Shown here: positions 17,122 to 30,052 of the stretch, one piece after another
Layout: every line of letters starts with the position of its first letter
How positions within the stretch are numbered: the first letter of the stretch is position 1
Virus record (IMG/VR): IMGVR_UViG_3300035676_000024
Coordinates: 1 to 37,109 of that record
Length of the DNA stretch: 37,109 nucleotides
Reading direction: 5' to 3' (one strand)
From: a virus
Taxonomy: Duplodnaviria; Caudoviricetes
The notes under the pieces: model-generated
What the model was told of the DNA's origin: nothing
The model's database searches: none
Seen by the model: the letters and a program-made list of their open reading frames with translations, nothing else
Made by a program: the position numbers and the translations under genes

Positions 17122-17267
17122 AGAAGACACCTAAAGCTAAGCGCGGCCTGTACTACAACATCAACCGTAGGCGAGAGCTAGGCTTGCCAGCGAAGAAGCC
17201 TGGACAGACTGGATATCCTACTGCCCAGGCTTTTCGCAGGTCTGCACGTACTGCTAAGAAGCGTTAG
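17118..17267 (+). CDS. Small basic protein (49 aa, not in ORF track)
   Basis: GGGGAG RBS, ATGA overlap; MKKTPKAKRGLYYNINRRRELGLPAKKPGQTGYPTAQAFRRSARTAKKR. Last gene of the + arm, overlapping the convergent gene by 14 nt. Confidence 0.75.
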   Translation: MKKTPKAKRGLYYNINRRRELGLPAKKPGQTGYPTAQAFRRSARTAKKR

Positions 17268-18009
17268 GCAGCAAGCCGCCTTCGAACAGGTACGATCCAA
17301 AATGCCCCAGGTTGACCCAGGGTGCAGCGTAAATCTTGATACCCATCTCTCTGGCTTTCCAGCAGAAGTAGTAGTCTTCTGACAGGAGTCTCTGCACTCC
17401 TGGCTCTATAGCGCAGGCGAAGTACTCGGTAATCCAGTCTGTGATTTCACCGGACAGCACCTTCACATCGTTGCGGTAAGCAGGCAGTTGCTCCTTCATC
17501 TTCACAAGAACTTCCTTCTTGATAAGCATGAAGCCTGTGCCACCATTCCAGATTTCCAGAGGCTCGTTAGCAGGCACTGTGACCTGCCCTTCGTAGCCTA
17601 CAAGGTTGACCACCATCGAACCAGTCTTGTTCTTGAGTTGGTCTACAGGAACGCCTTCTTTGACTGCTTGCTCAACTGTGTGCCAGTTGATTTCTTTCTT
17701 AGGGTAGATGCCGCAGATGATGTCCTTGTCTGCCCTGAGCATGTGAACGATGTCAGCAGGGTTGAACTTGATGTCTGCATCTATGAACATCAGGTGAGTA
17801 GCCGCCTCGTTTTGCATGAACTGGTGAGCTAGCAAGTTCCTGCCACGCTGTATCAGGCTCTCGTTGAAGAGGAAGGATACAGACAGGTCTATGTTGTTGT
17901 CAGACAGAACCTTGGTTGCTGTGATGAGGGACTGCGTGAAGAACCCTGTACACATGCCACCATACATAGGCACTGCCAAGAATACGTGAGGCTTCTTTTC
18001 TTCTTCCAT
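17254..18009 (-). CDS. GT-A fold glycosyltransferase-like protein
   Basis: VFLAVPMYGG, ESLIQRGRN, HLMFIDADI (DxD), GTGFMLI, LSEDYYFC, LGHFG. Confidence 0.8.
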   Translation of the reverse strand: MEEEKKPHVFLAVPMYGGMCTGFFTQSLITATKVLSDNNIDLSVSFLFNESLIQRGRNLLAHQFMQNEAATHLMFIDADIKFNPADIVHMLRADKDIICGIYPKKEINWHTVEQAVKEGVPVDQLKNKTGSMVVNLVGYEGQVTVPANEPLEIWNGGTGFMLIKKEVLVKMKEQLPAYRNDVKVLSGEITDWITEYFACAIEPGVQRLLSEDYYFCWKAREMGIKIYAAPWVNLGHFGSYLFEGGLLPNAS

Positions 18010-18814: not shown

Positions 18815-19249
18815 TCAGAACATTTCTTTCAATTCTTTGTGTCTTTGTTTGTGGCATGGTTGGCACAGCCACATAACCTCAAGTGGTTTATCGTAATCTT
18901 CATGATGTGCTACTGATTTCTGATTTCCGCAACGTACACATGGAAGCCGAACAAGTTTTCCTTTTTTTATCGCATATGAGACTCTGCTGTGTGCGATGTT
19001 TCTGCGTTTATCTTCTGCTCTCCAAGCTCTATTAACCTCAGTGTTCGCTTTTATGCGCTCTGAAATTTTTCCTCTTGCTCGGTCATATGCGCGAATCTTG
19101 TCAATGTTTTTGTTCCTGTGTTCAGTTGCATCATTCTTGGTGCACTCCTTACATTTGTTGAGATGCCCGTCAGCCATCATTGAATGCTTGTAGAACTCAG
19201 TGAGTGGCTTGACGGACTTGCACTTAAAACACTCCTTAGAACGAACCAT
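18815..19249 (-). CDS. HNH endonuclease with N-terminal Zn-finger (putative free-standing homing endonuclease)
   Basis: CxxC...CxxC N-terminus; CVRCG...AHHEDYDKPLEVMWLCQPCHKQRH; visibly more AT-rich than its flanks. Confidence 0.8.
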   Translation of the reverse strand: MVRSKECFKCKSVKPLTEFYKHSMMADGHLNKCKECTKNDATEHRNKNIDKIRAYDRARGKISERIKANTEVNRAWRAEDKRRNIAHSRVSYAIKKGKLVRLPCVRCGNQKSVAHHEDYDKPLEVMWLCQPCHKQRHKELKEMF

Positions 19250-19293
19250 GCCGTACTCCTGTGCTATGGATGTACGACCATTATAGGCCCGTT

Positions 19294-19605
19294 CTAATTA
19301 AAAGGTACGTCATCATTCTTAGGCCGATACGCATAGTCGTTGTTCTCCCTGCGTTGGTAGCCTGACCGCACCTCTCTGGGTGTTTCCTTTTGCTTTCGTG
19401 CCCAGTTGTCTTCTGCCAGAGACAGCAGGCTGTAGCCCATGCTGGTTGGCTTTTCCCATGCGCTGAGCTTGAGTTTGTCACCAGCCTTGTAGTCCATCTC
19501 CAGGACTAGGAAGCCCTTGTAGTCCGGGCCTTTCTCGCTCTTACGCTTGGCCTTCTCTTCGTAAAACATGACGCCCTTTCCGGGCATCTCTTTATGTTCA
19601 GCCAT
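19294..19605 (-). CDS. Putative single-stranded DNA-binding protein
   Basis: Start at 19605 (AAGGA RBS) rather than 19743; PDYKG, LSAW motifs and an acidic DDVPF(N) tail; located next to RecT and the exonuclease. Confidence 0.65.
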   Translation of the reverse strand: MAEHKEMPGKGVMFYEEKAKRKSEKGPDYKGFLVLEMDYKAGDKLKLSAWEKPTSMGYSLLSLAEDNWARKQKETPREVRSGYQRRENNDYAYRPKNDDVPFN

Positions 19606-19615
19606 CACTTTCCTT

Positions 19616-19846
19616 TCATGGTTGATAGTGGTATCTGGCAAAGACCGACCCACCCTGACTAACATTCTCTGTAAAGATTCGATGTCCCTGCCGTCTAAGG
19701 ACTTCGATATGTGCTGCAAGCCTTGTGTCCCTGTAAAGCTCATACGACTGCTTTTGTGTCAGCGGTCCTACTTCTCGGAGGTGTCCGAGAATTCTGGATC
19801 GTTTTGTAGCGAATCCATACCTGACGGGGACATCTGCGACTTTGGG
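19616..19846 (-). CDS. Winged helix-turn-helix domain (HTH_39-like) in the -1 frame of recT, with no start codon of its own
   Basis: Translates PKVADVPVRYGFATKRSRILGHLREVGPLTQKQSYELYRDTRLAAHIEVLRRQGHRIFTENVSQGGSVFARYHYQP*. There is no in-frame ATG/GTG/TTG back to the previous stop, and the frame fills the gap to the SSB RBS. Confidence 0.75.
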   Translation of the reverse strand, partial: PKVADVPVRYGFATKRSRILGHLREVGPLTQKQSYELYRDTRLAAHIEVLRRQGHRIFTENVSQGGSVFARYHYQP

Positions 19847-20634
19847 TTGGTTTGCCCTCCAGACTTGACAATCTCCCCTTTCAGCTTGACCTTGTGAAGG
19901 CTACTAAAACCCTCTACAACGTCTTTATTTGCTTCTTGCAGGGCCAAGTACTTGTTCGTCTTCTCAGCCCATGTAACCTTGTCAGAAGAGGCTATACGGG
20001 CAATGAGAGAAGAGTAGCCAGCAATCCATTCATCCTCGGTGTAGTAGCTGCTGTGTACCTTGTCGCCAGGAAGGTGAAGCTTGAACGCCCCTTCCTCTTT
20101 CTGTTCCACAACATCTACCCGCTCTGCCATACCCATGTCTACAGGTGCAGCAGGTTTGGCAGGCTCAAAGTCCTGTACCTCCTCAGGAGTGTAGACACCC
20201 ACAACTACGCCAGGGTAGACGGCACGGATGCCTTCTGACAGCACCCTAGCCCTGAGCATGGCACGAGGGTAGTTGCGCCAGTTGTCTTTATTGGCAATTC
20301 CTATCGACTTAGCCTGACCGATAGTCCATGTCACTTCTAGGCTACCGCCTTGAGGGTGAGAGAACAGTCCCGTGACCTGCTCGTCTGTGTAAACCTTCCA
20401 CTCAACCCTACCGCCAGCAGCCTGAAACCGTGCAAGCATGGCATCTGCTTTCAGGGCAGGACGGCCTTGGATCACATGGTAATCACGCATGGCTACAGCA
20501 GGATGCAGGTTCTCTGCTTGGCACAGGAGCATGATCGACATAGCTTCTTCTGGTGTTTTGAACCCGAACAGCTTTGACTGTGCTGCTACTTTACCCATGT
20601 TCTCTATGTCTGAGAAAGGTACGATGTTGCTCAT
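19768..20634 (-). CDS. RecT/Red-beta-like single-strand annealing protein
   Basis: HVIQGRPALKADAMLARF and NWRNYPRAMLRARVLSEGIRAVYP-V--GVYTPEE signature; paired with a YqaJ exonuclease. Confidence 0.8.
   Translation of the reverse strand: MSNIVPFSDIENMGKVAAQSKLFGFKTPEEAMSIMLLCQAENLHPAVAMRDYHVIQGRPALKADAMLARFQAAGGRVEWKVYTDEQVTGLFSHPQGGSLEVTWTIGQAKSIGIANKDNWRNYPRAMLRARVLSEGIRAVYPGVVVGVYTPEEVQDFEPAKPAAPVDMGMAERVDVVEQKEEGAFKLHLPGDKVHSSYYTEDEWIAGYSSLIARIASSDKVTWAEKTNKYLALQEANKDVVEGFSSLHKVKLKGEIVKSGGQTNPKSQMSPSGMDSLQNDPEFSDTSEK
19840..19860 (-). promoter_or_regulatory. Putative -1 programmed ribosomal frameshift signal
   Basis: In-frame X_XXY_YYZ heptamer C_CCA_AAG (19846-19840), with GGAGG (19860-19856) 9 nt upstream. 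Confidence 0.7.
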
Positions 20635-20897
20635 TTCACATCCTTTGCATCTGCTGTTTGTGCTTTGAAAATTGCGTGTTCTGCTGATGTTGACGGGCCT
20701 ACCTCAAGTGTGATTTTGATAGGTGGGTTGTCATCAATCCAAATCGGCATGGTTATCTGACTGTTGTCCATATCCTTGCCTGCACTCTTGCTGGCCTTCT
20801 TTGCCGTCTCTAAGATGGCTTTAGCAGCCAAGTACAAGACATGGATAGGATGCCTTTGTGGGTCAGCAGGCTTGACTGTTGATTTACTCCAAGTCAT
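20631..20897 (-). CDS. Hypothetical protein
   Basis: 88 aa, GGAG RBS, ATGA overlaps at both ends. Confidence 0.7.
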   Translation of the reverse strand: MTWSKSTVKPADPQRHPIHVLYLAAKAILETAKKASKSAGKDMDNSQITMPIWIDDNPPIKITLEVGPSTSAEHAIFKAQTADAKDVK

Positions 20898-21070
20898 TTC
20901 TTGGCTCCCTTCTTAACCCCAGGCTTTTTCCTTGGTGTGCCATCCTTACATCTTCCATAAGGTGCTGGCAACATTAGCCTATTCAAACACTCGATCATGT
21001 AGTCGTAGCTGTTTCTAAGCTCAGCAATCTTCTTGTGTATATCTTCTTTCTCTGCTTTCGAGATAAACAT
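20894..21070 (-). CDS. Small protein with basic APYG-KDGTPRKKPG tail (58 aa, not in ORF track)
   Basis: GGAGGTTTCC-ATG start; MFISKAEKEDIHKKIAELRNSYDYMIECLNRLMLPAPYGRCKDGTPRKKPGVKKGAKK. Confidence 0.75.
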   Translation of the reverse strand: MFISKAEKEDIHKKIAELRNSYDYMIECLNRLMLPAPYGRCKDGTPRKKPGVKKGAKK

Positions 21071-21079
21071 GGAAACCTC

Positions 21080-21979
21080 CTACTTGATTAAAAATTTCCT
21101 GGGGCCAGGAACCTCACGCACAAACTGCTTGTAGATGTCTGGCATAGCCTGCTGAAAGAGCTTTTGGTCAAACTTCATGCTTGCCTTGTCGTTCTTCCAC
21201 GTAGCCAGCACGTTGCCTGCAATGTCAACAAGAGCAGACTTGTTCTGCATCCTTTGCTGGATTGCAGCTTTTAGCTTGTCCTCTTCTGTCTCCAGTTGCT
21301 TTCGCTCTGCGTTGACACGGAAGAGTTGAGAGGCCAGTTCTTCCAGCGTAGAGTCAGCCAGAACAGTTGTGTCTGGTGCTGACGTTGGGAACATGAGCTT
21401 GGCTTCGTTGGTAGACGCTGCTGGCAGGGGAGTCCTGCTTTGCACTGCCGCCCAGTAGACAGCCATCTGCTTTATCAGGTCTTCCTTTTGTTGGTCAGCG
21501 ATTGTGAAAGGCGCAAGGAAGAACTCCTGACCGCCGAATAGGACTGCCAGATAAACCTTCTGTACGCCGAACACTGTTGCTTCGTGTACAAGTTGCGCCA
21601 TGTCAGCAGCAGGTATAACTCCAGCTTCCGCATCAAACTTACTACGCACAGCAGCGTTGTAGTTCTTGCATTCAACCAGAATCGTCTGACCATCTTGCAC
21701 CCCGGCAAAGTCAAAGTGGCTACGCAACCAAGACTCTTTCGGGTGAGTCCTGAACTCTTCTACCTTTGTAAGCTGTACGCCTAGCTTCTGCTCAGCAAGC
21801 CTGCCGATAACAGGCTCCATCACATGACCCATCTGCACAGCCTCGTTGTCAGACAGGTCTTCTACCTCCATCATGTCTAGCTTTTGGAGGATGACTTCGT
21901 TGGCTTTGCCGTTGACAGCCCTGCGGGTATCGCCTGACCACCATGCTTGCTTACGGAATGAGTGGTCAAAGTCCGACAT
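21080..21979 (-). CDS. YqaJ-like (lambda-Exo family) recombination exonuclease
   Basis: MGHVMEPVI, HP---WLRSHFD, LVECKN, Q-VHE, LAVLFGG motifs. Confidence 0.88.
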   Translation of the reverse strand: MSDFDHSFRKQAWWSGDTRRAVNGKANEVILQKLDMMEVEDLSDNEAVQMGHVMEPVIGRLAEQKLGVQLTKVEEFRTHPKESWLRSHFDFAGVQDGQTILVECKNYNAAVRSKFDAEAGVIPAADMAQLVHEATVFGVQKVYLAVLFGGQEFFLAPFTIADQQKEDLIKQMAVYWAAVQSRTPLPAASTNEAKLMFPTSAPDTTVLADSTLEELASQLFRVNAERKQLETEEDKLKAAIQQRMQNKSALVDIAGNVLATWKNDKASMKFDQKLFQQAMPDIYKQFVREVPGPRKFLIK

Positions 21980-24298: not shown

Positions 24299-24755
24299 GG
24301 AAACCTCCTTCTATACAAAAGTTAGTCAAGTTATCTTTCCCTGATAACTTTGCTAATTTGACAATACAAGGGCCACAATAGGGATGATGATAGGATTGGG
24401 CCTCATCTCTACTGTCAACCTTACTCACAGGTTGTCCACATTGGGGTTCTACCCTTAATGTGTTCTGCTGCTTTATTTATCGACCCCGCTAATCTGTAGC
24501 GGTCACAGTCCTATGTCAGCCTACTGGTCGTTTATCGCTTGGGGCAGAACCCTCGCGCAGCCGTTCCCCTTGGGTCAAGCTGATCCGCTTTTCTTCCGCG
24601 CCACCACAGACATGGGTGCTTGCTATCGTGCGGAGTACGGTTGACGTAGGGGCAACAAAAAAGCCGGTTACTACTGCCCTTGGTAGGAACCCCCCGCTAA
24701 GCAGTGGGCAAGAGCATGAGTAACCGGCCTTAACTTGTCGCTTCCTACGGCAACG
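24299..24755 (-). ncRNA. Candidate long structured non-coding RNA and/or replication origin region
   Basis: No credible ORF; lies downstream of a good promoter; 5' hairpin/pseudoknot; DnaA-box-like 9-mers near 24422-24441. Confidence 0.4.
24657..24728 (-). terminator. Long hairpin followed by T6 (terminator/attenuator-like)
   Basis: GCCGGTTACT/AGTAACCGGC (10 bp) plus TGCTCTTG/CAAGGGCA, then TTTTTT on the minus strand. Confidence 0.6.
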
Positions 24756-24761
24756 GTTTGC

Positions 24762-24791
24762 AATGTATCAGGGGACTTTGGGGCTTGTCAA
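24762..24791 (-). promoter_or_regulatory. Sigma70-type promoter
   Basis: TTGACA-N18-TACATT with TGn extended -10; shares TTGACAAGCC with the 22270 promoter. Confidence 0.65.
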
Positions 24792-27469: not shown

Positions 27470-29223
27470 ACTTTGACCTAAAGAAGTTTTACAAGTTCTG
27501 CTCTGAACTCAAGATTGAGACGAAGGAGGAGGGCTTGAAGAAGATGGGTACGCTGCTGGGGACGCAGACGTATGTGATGGAGGAGATTCAGAAAGGGCTA
27601 GAGGAAGATGTTCACTTCTTCGTCATCCTCAAAGGCAGGCAGTTGGGTATCACGACTATTTCCCTGGCTCTCGATCTTTACTGGCAATTTACGCACCCCG
27701 GCTGGCAGGGAACGCTGGTTGCAGATACAGAGGAGAACCGAGACATGTTTCGGTCAACTCTTGCTATGTACATGGAAGGGTTGCCCAAGGAGTACAAGAT
27801 TCCGCTGGTGGCCCACAACAGGAACCAGATGGTTCTCAAGAACAGATCGCGTCTGTTCTACCAAATCGCTGGCAATAAGTCTCGTCTGGGGCAGGGTAAA
27901 GCTATCACTTACCTGCACGGTACAGAAACGGCATCATGGGGTAATGAAGAGGGTCTGGCTTCCTTGATTGCTTCTCTTGCAGAAAAGAACTCTGAACGGC
28001 TCTACATGTTTGAGTCCACAGCTCAGGGCTTCAACATGTTCCACGACATGTACAAGACTGCCAAGCGAGCAAAGACGCAGAGGGCAATCTTCTGTGGCTG
28101 GTGGCGTAACGAGTTCTACTCTGTTGCTGGTGACTCCCAGATTTACAAGGTGTACTGGGATGGCAAGCTCAAGTCAGAAGAAAAAGAGTGGGTCAAGGAA
28201 ATCAAGAAGCTCTACGGCGTAGACATCAACTCTAGGCAGATGGCGTGGTGGCGTTGGAAGATGCACGAGGGAATCAAGGATGAAACCTTGATGTATCAGG
28301 AGTTTCCTCCTACTGAAGACTATGCCTTTGTGATGACTGGCACAAGCTTCTTCTCGCACACGAGATGCACAGAAGCTGCCAAGCAAAGCAAGAAGAGGGA
28401 CTATGAAGACTACCGCTACAGTTTTGGTCAGTTGTTCCAAGACACCGAGGTGCTTAGAAGTACAGAAAGACTGTCTACGCTTCGCGTGTGGGAGCAACCC
28501 ATTGACTCGGCTTACTACGTTATTGGAGCCGATCCAGCCTACGGAAGCTCAGACTGGGCAGATAGATTTTGCATACAGGTGTTCAGATGCTACGCTGACG
28601 GCCTTGACCAAGTAGCAGAGTTTGCAACCAGTGAACTCAACACCTACCAGTTTGCGTGGGTCATTGCTCACCTTGCTGGAGCTTACAAGAACTCTACGCT
28701 TAACCTAGAGGTCAACGGCCCAGGTCAGGCAGTCATCAACGAGATACGCAACTTAAAACGCATGGCAAGCTCTATGGGTGGTCCTATGGGGCATGGCTTG
28801 ATGGATGTGCTTGGTTCTATGCAGAACTACATCTGGAGGCGTAACGACACCCTTGGTGGCCTGTCTAACAGTCTTGGCTACGTCACCACAGCATCGTCCA
28901 AGGAGAGGATGCTCAACTACATGAAAGACTATTTTGAGCGAGACATGATGCGTGTCTACAGCATGGAGTTGCTGGAGGAGATGAAGGGCATTGTGCGAGA
29001 CAGTGGCTTCTTGGGCGCTCCTGGTCGTGGCAAAGACGATAGAGTCATTGCTACTGCCCTTGCCAGCGTTGCCTTTGCAGAGCAGTTGCAGCCTCGCCTG
29101 ATAGCGCAGAAGATTACCCGCGACATCAGCAAGGCGCAGGAAGATTACACGCCTGAGCAGATTGCTGTTGGCAGAAACGTCAGCGACTACCTCAAGCGCA
29201 TAGGTTTGTATGGAACACAGTAA
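27466..29223 (+). CDS. terL: Terminase large subunit
   Basis: ILKGRQLGITT (Walker A), LHGTE (Walker B), ESTAQG coupling motif, nuclease residues IGADPA, LEVN, KDDRV. Confidence 0.93.
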   Translation: MNFDLKKFYKFCSELKIETKEEGLKKMGTLLGTQTYVMEEIQKGLEEDVHFFVILKGRQLGITTISLALDLYWQFTHPGWQGTLVADTEENRDMFRSTLAMYMEGLPKEYKIPLVAHNRNQMVLKNRSRLFYQIAGNKSRLGQGKAITYLHGTETASWGNEEGLASLIASLAEKNSERLYMFESTAQGFNMFHDMYKTAKRAKTQRAIFCGWWRNEFYSVAGDSQIYKVYWDGKLKSEEKEWVKEIKKLYGVDINSRQMAWWRWKMHEGIKDETLMYQEFPPTEDYAFVMTGTSFFSHTRCTEAAKQSKKRDYEDYRYSFGQLFQDTEVLRSTERLSTLRVWEQPIDSAYYVIGADPAYGSSDWADRFCIQVFRCYADGLDQVAEFATSELNTYQFAWVIAHLAGAYKNSTLNLEVNGPGQAVINEIRNLKRMASSMGGPMGHGLMDVLGSMQNYIWRRNDTLGGLSNSLGYVTTASSKERMLNYMKDYFERDMMRVYSMELLEEMKGIVRDSGFLGAPGRGKDDRVIATALASVAFAEQLQPRLIAQKITRDISKAQEDYTPEQIAVGRNVSDYLKRIGLYGTQ

Positions 29224-30052
29224 CCTGACCGTAGTGGCGGTGTACGGGCATAACGATGGCACAAGCGCCATAGCAAGCCTTGTCAAAAGCTCAACACAGT
29301 TACCGGGAAGTAAAGCTCTACTGCTAAGCCCTAGCAGGCCACCTACTTTGCCTTGGTTTGTGGAACACAAGGGAATCTTTCCGCTGGACTACTTCCAGTA
29401 CTCGTGGTTCATGATGTACGCCCTGCACAACTTCATAGACACAAGCCACGTTCTTGTGGTGCAGGATGACGGATGGGTAATAGATGGCAACAACTTCAAG
29501 CAAGACTGGTACAACTACGACTACGTAGGCGCTCCTACGCACTCTGCATTGACGGCAGACAAGTACTTCTACAACTGGACTTGGCAGCAAGAGCCTGACC
29601 CTAAACACATCATCCAAAACGGTGGCTTATCCCTGCGAAGCAAGAAGATGCTGCAAGCCCCAGGCAAGTACGGCGTGATGCACAAAGCGTTCAATGTTCA
29701 GCCGTTTTGTAACGAGGATGTGCAGCTAACAGGGTTCATGCGAACAGAGCTAGAACGGTGCGGAATCAGGTACGCTCCAGACCAAGAGGCCAAGTATTTT
29801 TCTGTAGAGTATTTCGGCCCTGGCTACCATGATGACTTTGACCTTGACAAGCTGTTCGGTTGTCACGGCCCTACCCGCAAGTTGGTTGATGGTCGCAAGC
29901 TCAAGATAGACACGACCAAGTACGAACCGCAGAACATGCACAAGGAAATGGCGTTTCTGGAATACCTGTTGAAGAAGGGGTACGAGATTGAGTACTTCAA
30001 ACAACCCGCTGAGCAAGACGGAACTCAAAAAGCAGATGCGCCGGTTTTATGA
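29210..30052 (+). CDS. DUF5672-like, glycosyltransferase-related protein
   Basis: HVLVVQDDGWV, YDYVGAP, NGGLSLRSKK, NEDV, FSVE, FGCH motifs. Confidence 0.75.
   Translation: MEHSNLTVVAVYGHNDGTSAIASLVKSSTQLPGSKALLLSPSRPPTLPWFVEHKGIFPLDYFQYSWFMMYALHNFIDTSHVLVVQDDGWVIDGNNFKQDWYNYDYVGAPTHSALTADKYFYNWTWQQEPDPKHIIQNGGLSLRSKKMLQAPGKYGVMHKAFNVQPFCNEDVQLTGFMRTELERCGIRYAPDQEAKYFSVEYFGPGYHDDFDLDKLFGCHGPTRKLVDGRKLKIDTTKYEPQNMHKEMAFLEYLLKKGYEIEYFKQPAEQDGTQKADAPVL

Follow-up and report, generated by a model that had tools for sequence, protein, structure and literature searches.

The window analysed here, a stretch of 37,109 nucleotides, is a complete phage genome of 37.1 kb with terminal repeats. Its minus strand, to which all features of the region described below belong, carries a recT-like gene (19768..20634) for a single-strand annealing protein with a 0-frame product of 288 amino acids. 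The protein matches the Pfam RecT profile PF03837 with 31.9 bits against a cut-off of 24 (E 1e-7) as well as phrog_561 in a PHROG scan (E 9e-23), and its AlphaFold model (pLDDT 85.9) comprises an annealase domain, a linker, a folded C-terminal domain (CTD) and a low-confidence tail beginning at residue 258. The N-terminal domain, approximately residues 1-155 (20170..20634), is modelled with the RecT/Red-beta/RAD52 fold; in fold searches it matches the Red-beta N-terminal domain 7ujl with a Z of 7.5 and an rmsd of 3.2 over 127 aligned residues, and also RAD52, Sak and LiRecT, and we predict from sequence and model that the protein is an ssDNA annealase. The CTD, residues 184-257 (19864..20085), is a beta-hairpin with helices modelled at a pLDDT of 94-98, for which searches of solved structures and of the Atlas yielded nothing clearly similar. 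Upstream in the same operon lies the partner gene for a YqaJ/RecE-like exonuclease (21080..21979; Pfam and PHROG), while an SSB-like gene (19294..19605; weak phrog_18154 match, E 0.005), whose product has an acidic tail ending in DDVPFN, follows downstream. PHROG and Pfam scans gave no match to an initiator, helicase, primase or polymerase among the scanned ORFs of this genome.

The sequence-only reading of this DNA had proposed that a start-less frame, lying at -1 and overlapping the recT 3' end, encodes a winged helix that is fused to RecT by ribosomal frameshifting. The elements it named are present: the frame is open from 19900 to 19616 and contains no ATG, GTG or TTG, and recT reads AAC CCA AAG where Pro264-Lys265 are encoded, giving a perfect X_XXY_YYZ heptamer in the 0 frame, C_CCA_AAG (19840..19846). 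This slip site is situated immediately past the folded CTD, and an SD-like GGAGG (19856..19860), which sequence and family enrichment mark as a likely frameshift stimulator, precedes it with a 9-nt spacer. Shifting at this position would replace the acidic 0-frame tail of 23 codons (19768..19839; pLDDT 56-60 in the model) by a basic -1 extension of 74 codons without a start codon (19616..19840), composed of a linker and an HTH_39 winged helix, the stop of which directly precedes the SSB-like gene. The predicted shift product has 265+74 = 339 amino acids, compared to 288 for the unshifted RecT.

The winged-helix assignment of the sequence-only reading is borne out by a profile scan and by structure prediction. 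The 76-residue peptide of the -1 frame matches HTH_39 (PF14090) with 31.6 bits against a cut-off of 21.3, and its predicted model (pLDDT 84.5) shows helices at residues 15-25, 31-38 and 43-53 followed by a beta-wing at 57-74. This model is closest to free phage HTH proteins (BFVD, E 2e-5, TM 0.76-0.84) and weakly resembles the generic wHTH regulators AspA and Stf76 (all E > 0.03). Across the family the 0-frame tail has a mean net charge of -2.7 versus +5.4 for the -1 extension, which carries +3 to +7 in all 175 loci, and an RLA motif in the recognition helix is invariant. Basic charge together with this motif is typical of nucleic-acid binding, and the HTH_39 extension is probably a DNA-binding domain, as predicted from sequence and model.

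Coupling of the slippery site to the winged-helix frame

We compared related loci in a set recovered exclusively by RecT queries and chosen without reference to the slip site. It comprises the best 80 of 157, 30 of 30 and the best 80 of 106, i.e. 190 loci, of which three incomplete ones were dropped, leaving 125 distinct 3' ends. Fifty of these bear the HTH, in each case at -1, and an in-frame C_CCA_AAR is present within the last 35 codons in 49 of the 50 compared to two of the 75 HTH-less ends, being absent from the other 73. These counts refer to related loci and hence not to independent events, which deprives a Fisher value of its meaning here; on a quick tree of the annealase N-domain with 77 rows, the HTH label changes eight times, at least four of the changes being forced by well-supported branches, and HTH-less rows are nested within HTH-bearing ones. 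The lone HTH-bearing exception (L346) has A_AAA_AAG, the dnaX heptamer, within the last 20 RecT codons, and its -1 frame is open from two codons ahead of this site. In two further loci (L305 and L349) heptamer and SD are retained and the -1 frame ends in a stretch which by eye looks like a degenerate HTH without the wing. From their sequences, the three exceptions support the frameshift reading.

A second set, anchored on the HTH (best 80 of 313, best 80 of 225 and the earlier loci, four rows dropped), is biased since it was ranked against a query beginning with Pro-Lys; in it the heptamer lies 37-42 codons before the recognition helix in all 148 distinct loci, and its last codon is AAG in 135 and AAA in 13 of them. 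The first C of the heptamer is invariant in 148/148 although the codon to which it belongs takes 11 forms encoding 11 amino acids. For Pro, CCA is used throughout, compared to a background of 30%. Pro-Lys pairs elsewhere in the same ORFs are spelled C_CCA_AAR in only 3 of 191 cases. Among the ten closest records, nine show an identity of 93-100% for the HTH frame and of 71-95% for RecT; in the tenth, L005, the values are 78% and 81%. In the RecT-like ends of L262 (C_CAA_AAG) and L274 (C_CCA_AAG) the site forms the last two sense codons before TAA, so that there the 0-frame tail is absent. On these comparative grounds, the slip-site nucleotides are conserved beyond the need of the protein and tied to the -1 ORF. 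HTH-bearing homologues share the heptamer and the start-less -1 HTH frame which the sequence-only reading had suggested looking for, and the SD is enriched without being universal.

Candidate stimulators of the shift

Upstream pairing to the anti-SD is stronger than in amino-acid-preserving codon resampling in 67 of the 76 distinct contexts, the mean excess being -1.9 kcal/mol compared to +0.17 in control windows. Among 30 representative contexts the SD exceeds the codon-resampled null in 23 and is weak or absent in seven, the latter including most of a Rad52/Sak-like clade. The motif is kept via differing residues, i.e. Gly-Gly, Met-Glu-Glu (MW202825.1) and Ala-Glu-Glu (L074). SD stimulators of -1 shifts act at a spacing of 9-14 nt (PMC5009743, in part).

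Regarding a 3' stimulator, the region in which the sequence-only reading had proposed a possible stem-loop folds with a z of -2.2 in this genome (19762..19836), and this possible RNA structure is not conserved in its relatives. RNAalifold, which does not consider pseudoknots, found 0 consensus pairs in 35 sequences, and the folding of the individual loci has a mean z of -0.48 versus -0.18 and -0.23 in the controls. Given that no conserved 3' stimulator was detected, the efficiency of the shift may be low or modest. Transcriptional slippage as a source of the frame change was rejected, as the longest run at this position is AAA and such slippage involves runs of nine A or T (PMC5009743, in part).

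Distribution of the cassette among annealases

The CTD travels together with the slip site and the HTH and is common to divergent N-domains. The cassette formed by these three elements is also found behind the divergent RecT N-domains of L196 and L282 (27-29% identity) and on Rad52/Sak-like N-domains (L261, L268, L270, L274, L286, L291, L299). For the latter clade none of three members scanned has a PHROG match, and L261 and L270 match Pfam Rad52_Rad22 with E 0.04 and 0.0009, which is below the cut-off, rendering the Rad52/Sak-like assignment tentative. Genomes recovered in the cassette search contain exactly one PF14090 match in 29 of 30 cases (19 of 20 near-complete ones) and never a second copy, the exception (L244) being a pattern match in which no HTH was found. 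Matches from MAGs show no HTH cassette save the degenerate one of L305, and they look like stray phage contigs.

Records devoid of the cassette contain a free HTH in 14 of 45 cases (mostly fragments; nine above the cut-off) and in one of five, the strong free HTH_39 genes being located upstream of the exonuclease gene; HTH_39 was not found in three of the four complete genomes without the cassette. The existence of sister phages with a free HTH_39 or none shows that the fusion to RecT is not universally needed. In Bcep22-like phages, HTH_39 heads an initiator-DnaC cluster (PMC9144972). Within a cassette-less group (L357), loci L425-L429 have, downstream of the SSB-like gene, a divergent HTH_39-like gene equipped with both an ATG and an SD. 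A database example of the overlapping frame is L242 (MW202825.1, 3343-3555), for which the GenBank annotation shows no more than an HTH stub of 37 aa starting at an internal ATG; the complete HTH frame extends from the slip site, and it is followed by two tandem SSB-like genes.

Proposed mechanism, alternatives and known systems

The comparisons lend strong support to the proposal of the sequence-only reading that a recT frameshift fuses RecT to a winged helix, by the conservation of the heptamer, the start-less HTH frame and the presence of the SD in most lineages. A programmed -1 shift yielding a 288-aa RecT and a 339-aa RecT-wHTH is very likely on this sequence evidence, and from sequence and its analysis we regard it as highly probable that the shifting is real and selected, proceeding by an SD-aided tandem -1 slippage of tRNA-Pro and tRNA-Lys. 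In the proposed mechanism, both tRNAs would re-pair from CCA/AAG to CCC/AAA, assisted by SD:anti-SD pairing 9 nt upstream, and a fraction of the ribosomes would make the 339-aa RecT bearing the winged helix in place of the acidic tail. RecT-family proteins form oligomers. Short and long subunits may co-assemble into one annealase oligomer, in which a minority of winged-helix subunits would tether it to double-stranded phage DNA, and such tethering could assist recombination by exonuclease, RecT and SSB or recombination-dependent replication. For mixed oligomers tethered to dsDNA by their long subunits, which are less well supported than the shift itself, we see the case as evenly balanced. A wider proposal, according to which a mobile cassette of CTD, slip site and winged helix has spread over annealases of both the RecT and the Rad52/Sak type in abundant aquatic phages, with mixed filaments binding a specific phage DNA site and turning the annealase into a site-targeted initiator of recombination or replication where the phage has no recognisable initiator, appears unlikely at present.

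An origin of the frame relation in an assembly indel, or in the decay of a once in-frame fusion, has a negligible probability. Its one point of support is a protein from a single contig, P0003, in which RecT and HTH share one frame with a garbled middle resembling an upstream indel; we rejected it as a natural fusion since it looks like an indel chimera. Against this origin, two of eight other runs compared at the level of contigs (X5 and X6) span the site with 0 gaps; X1, X2 and X3 contributed no contigs, and X8, with a hole at the site, is uninformative. A stronger argument is that the same frame relation recurs across independent assemblies: in the pooled set of 253 3' ends, which is partly circular because one contributing search required the heptamer, the HTH frame is at -1 in 177/177 HTH-bearing loci, and the HTH is strongly conserved. 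Natural in-frame fusions, envisaged in the sequence-only reading as a possible find in related phages, were encountered neither among 190 RecT proteins (273-298 aa) nor among the best 150 of 12,465 HTH matches, which, both being top lists, is weak evidence of absence. Another explanation is that the HTH is made separately, by re-initiation or from a near-cognate start, with the heptamer being a by-product of Pro-Lys conservation. Several loci offer a start codon: 18 of 148 have an ATG that coincides with the RecT stop or immediately follows it, TTG is found at the conserved Leu20 of the HTH frame in 76 of the 148, and in three of 175 loci, all Rad52/Sak-like, an ATG overlapping the stop occupies the start position of the free genes, where relatives have Leu. 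In those loci with an ATG near the RecT stop or at the native start, coupled re-initiation may also give free HTH, and we infer that the pattern suggests a translationally coupled HTH gene whose start disappeared after the shift had captured it. Yet the genome studied here has neither these ATGs nor the TTG, which would cut helix 1; between heptamer and first helix 169 of 175 loci lack ATG, GTG and TTG, and 17 of the 175 have a -1 frame that is open for no more than two codons ahead of the heptamer. By comparison, the free HTH_39 genes of sister phages (L415-L424) carry an ATG together with an SD-like motif immediately ahead of helix 1 in 10/10 strong matches. The near-cognate ATT at 19792 was discarded as a start, since the codon varies between ATT, ATC and GTT in relatives and has no SD, and no promoter-like site was found within 19200-21200. 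Furthermore, the nucleotide spelling of the heptamer is invariant, unlike that of other Pro-Lys pairs, and the heptamer is lost where the HTH is lost, leaving separate synthesis very improbable.

Two further explanations accept the shift and assign the winged helix a different task. The shift might be regulatory, delivering a low, fixed dose of HTH_39 to which the RecT part adds avidity, so that the product acts as a multivalent repressor or regulator of early genes. In sister and Bcep22-like phages HTH_39 acts as a small protein on its own, the single PF14090 match per genome in nearly all cassette-search genomes looks as though the fused and the free form had the same task, and the weak likeness to AspA and Stf76 fits a regulator as well; on the other hand, there is no candidate operator common to the family, the motif GGA[GT]GTTTCC, present in eight copies in the window, being RBS-like and occurring in the available upstream sequence of only 9 of the 177 HTH-bearing loci, and the cassette stays joined to annealases of different families. 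We consider a regulatory task possible and rather doubtful. A GGAGGTTTCC repeat considered as an HTH operator was rejected, being confined to the nearest clade when 0.1-2.5 kb upstream of each locus was examined. Alternatively, the winged helix could dock a protein such as SSB, the exonuclease or a host replisome protein in place of DNA. wHTH domains can serve as docking modules, e.g. RPA32C, and here the domain replaces an acidic disordered tail in a gene situated between those for exonuclease and SSB; the strongly basic extension and the invariant RLA motif of its recognition helix speak against docking, making it distinctly unlikely.

The proposed recT shift combines features of several known systems. 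C_CCA_AAG is described as highly shift-prone in E. coli (PMC5009743, in part), and E. coli copA, whose -1 shift gives the CopA(Z) chaperone, has the identical heptamer, also read Pro-Lys, at the RefSeq two-piece join. Shifting in copA shortens the product with the aid of a 3' pseudoknot (PMC6182138, in part), whereas the recT shift would add a domain with a 5' SD as the likely stimulator. With E. coli dnaX and IS elements it shares an X_XXY_YYZ heptamer ending in A_AAG and an SD 9-14 nt upstream (PMC5009743, in part), the relative L346 even carrying the dnaX heptamer itself; it differs in affecting a phage annealase gene, in having no conserved 3' stem-loop and in its longer shifted product. 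Phage frameshifts are described for the G-T tail chaperones and for capsid/tail Ig-domain proteins (lambda, T3, A2, A118), the Ig-like domains being mobile (PMC5009743, in part). As in these, a minority of the subunits of an oligomeric phage protein would gain a C-terminal domain, but they concern virion or assembly genes and here a winged helix would be added to the product of an early recombination gene. RecT/Red-beta and Sak/Rad52 proteins have in common with the protein studied here the N-terminal annealase fold, a linker, a small helical CTD and exonuclease and SSB neighbours, the differences being a predicted recoded second product with HTH_39 and a CTD without a clear structural match. 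The free HTH_39 proteins, e.g. gp18 of Bcep22-like phages, are of the same family and fold and also located in recombination/replication modules; the domain described here differs in having no start codon and being reachable only through recT. The function of HTH_39 (Bcep22-like gp18) is given as unknown (PMC9144972, in part).

In the open-access literature covered, we found no description of frameshifting within the annealase gene of a phage, nor of an annealase-wHTH fusion. The PRFect and bioRxiv 10.1101/2025.10.02.679949 texts contain no word starting with 'RecT', and in passages on GeneTack the string matched only inside other words. What we see here is very likely an established mechanism acting in a class of genes new to it and giving a new domain architecture; it is widespread, the slippery sequence recurring in many aquatic phages, and apparently undescribed. 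It extends conserved phage frameshifting, so far described mostly for virion genes, to a recombination gene and exposes a protein that gene callers miss or shorten, such as in MW202825.1, in a family whose RecT homologues number thousands in databases (6873 matches). The natural comparisons of fused, free and absent HTH_39 and of C_CCA_AAG and A_AAA_AAG are useful for finding the role of HTH_39. Should the domain direct the annealase to sites on DNA, this would bear on recombination-dependent phage replication as well as on tools for recombineering.

Further features of this genome deserve mention. Eight early genes on the minus strand (26253, 26024, 25820, 25560, 25187, 24308, 22218, 21080) have an RBS motif, GGA[G/T]GTTTCC(N0-3)ATG, in which pairing of GGA with TCC could enclose the SD, a hint that their translation is controlled in common; of 253 related loci, 9 contain GGA[G/T]GTTTCC, nearly all of them from the nearest clade. 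A 360-nt ORF-free stretch of the early region (24430-24790, minus strand) contains a 23-nt inverted repeat (24660-24731) with a T run behind it and is a possible terminator or structured RNA. Glycosyltransferase-like genes at 17254-18009 and 29210-30052 (phrog_1574/34859; DUF5672) flank the modules, and their sequences suggest a possible glycosylation of DNA or virion.
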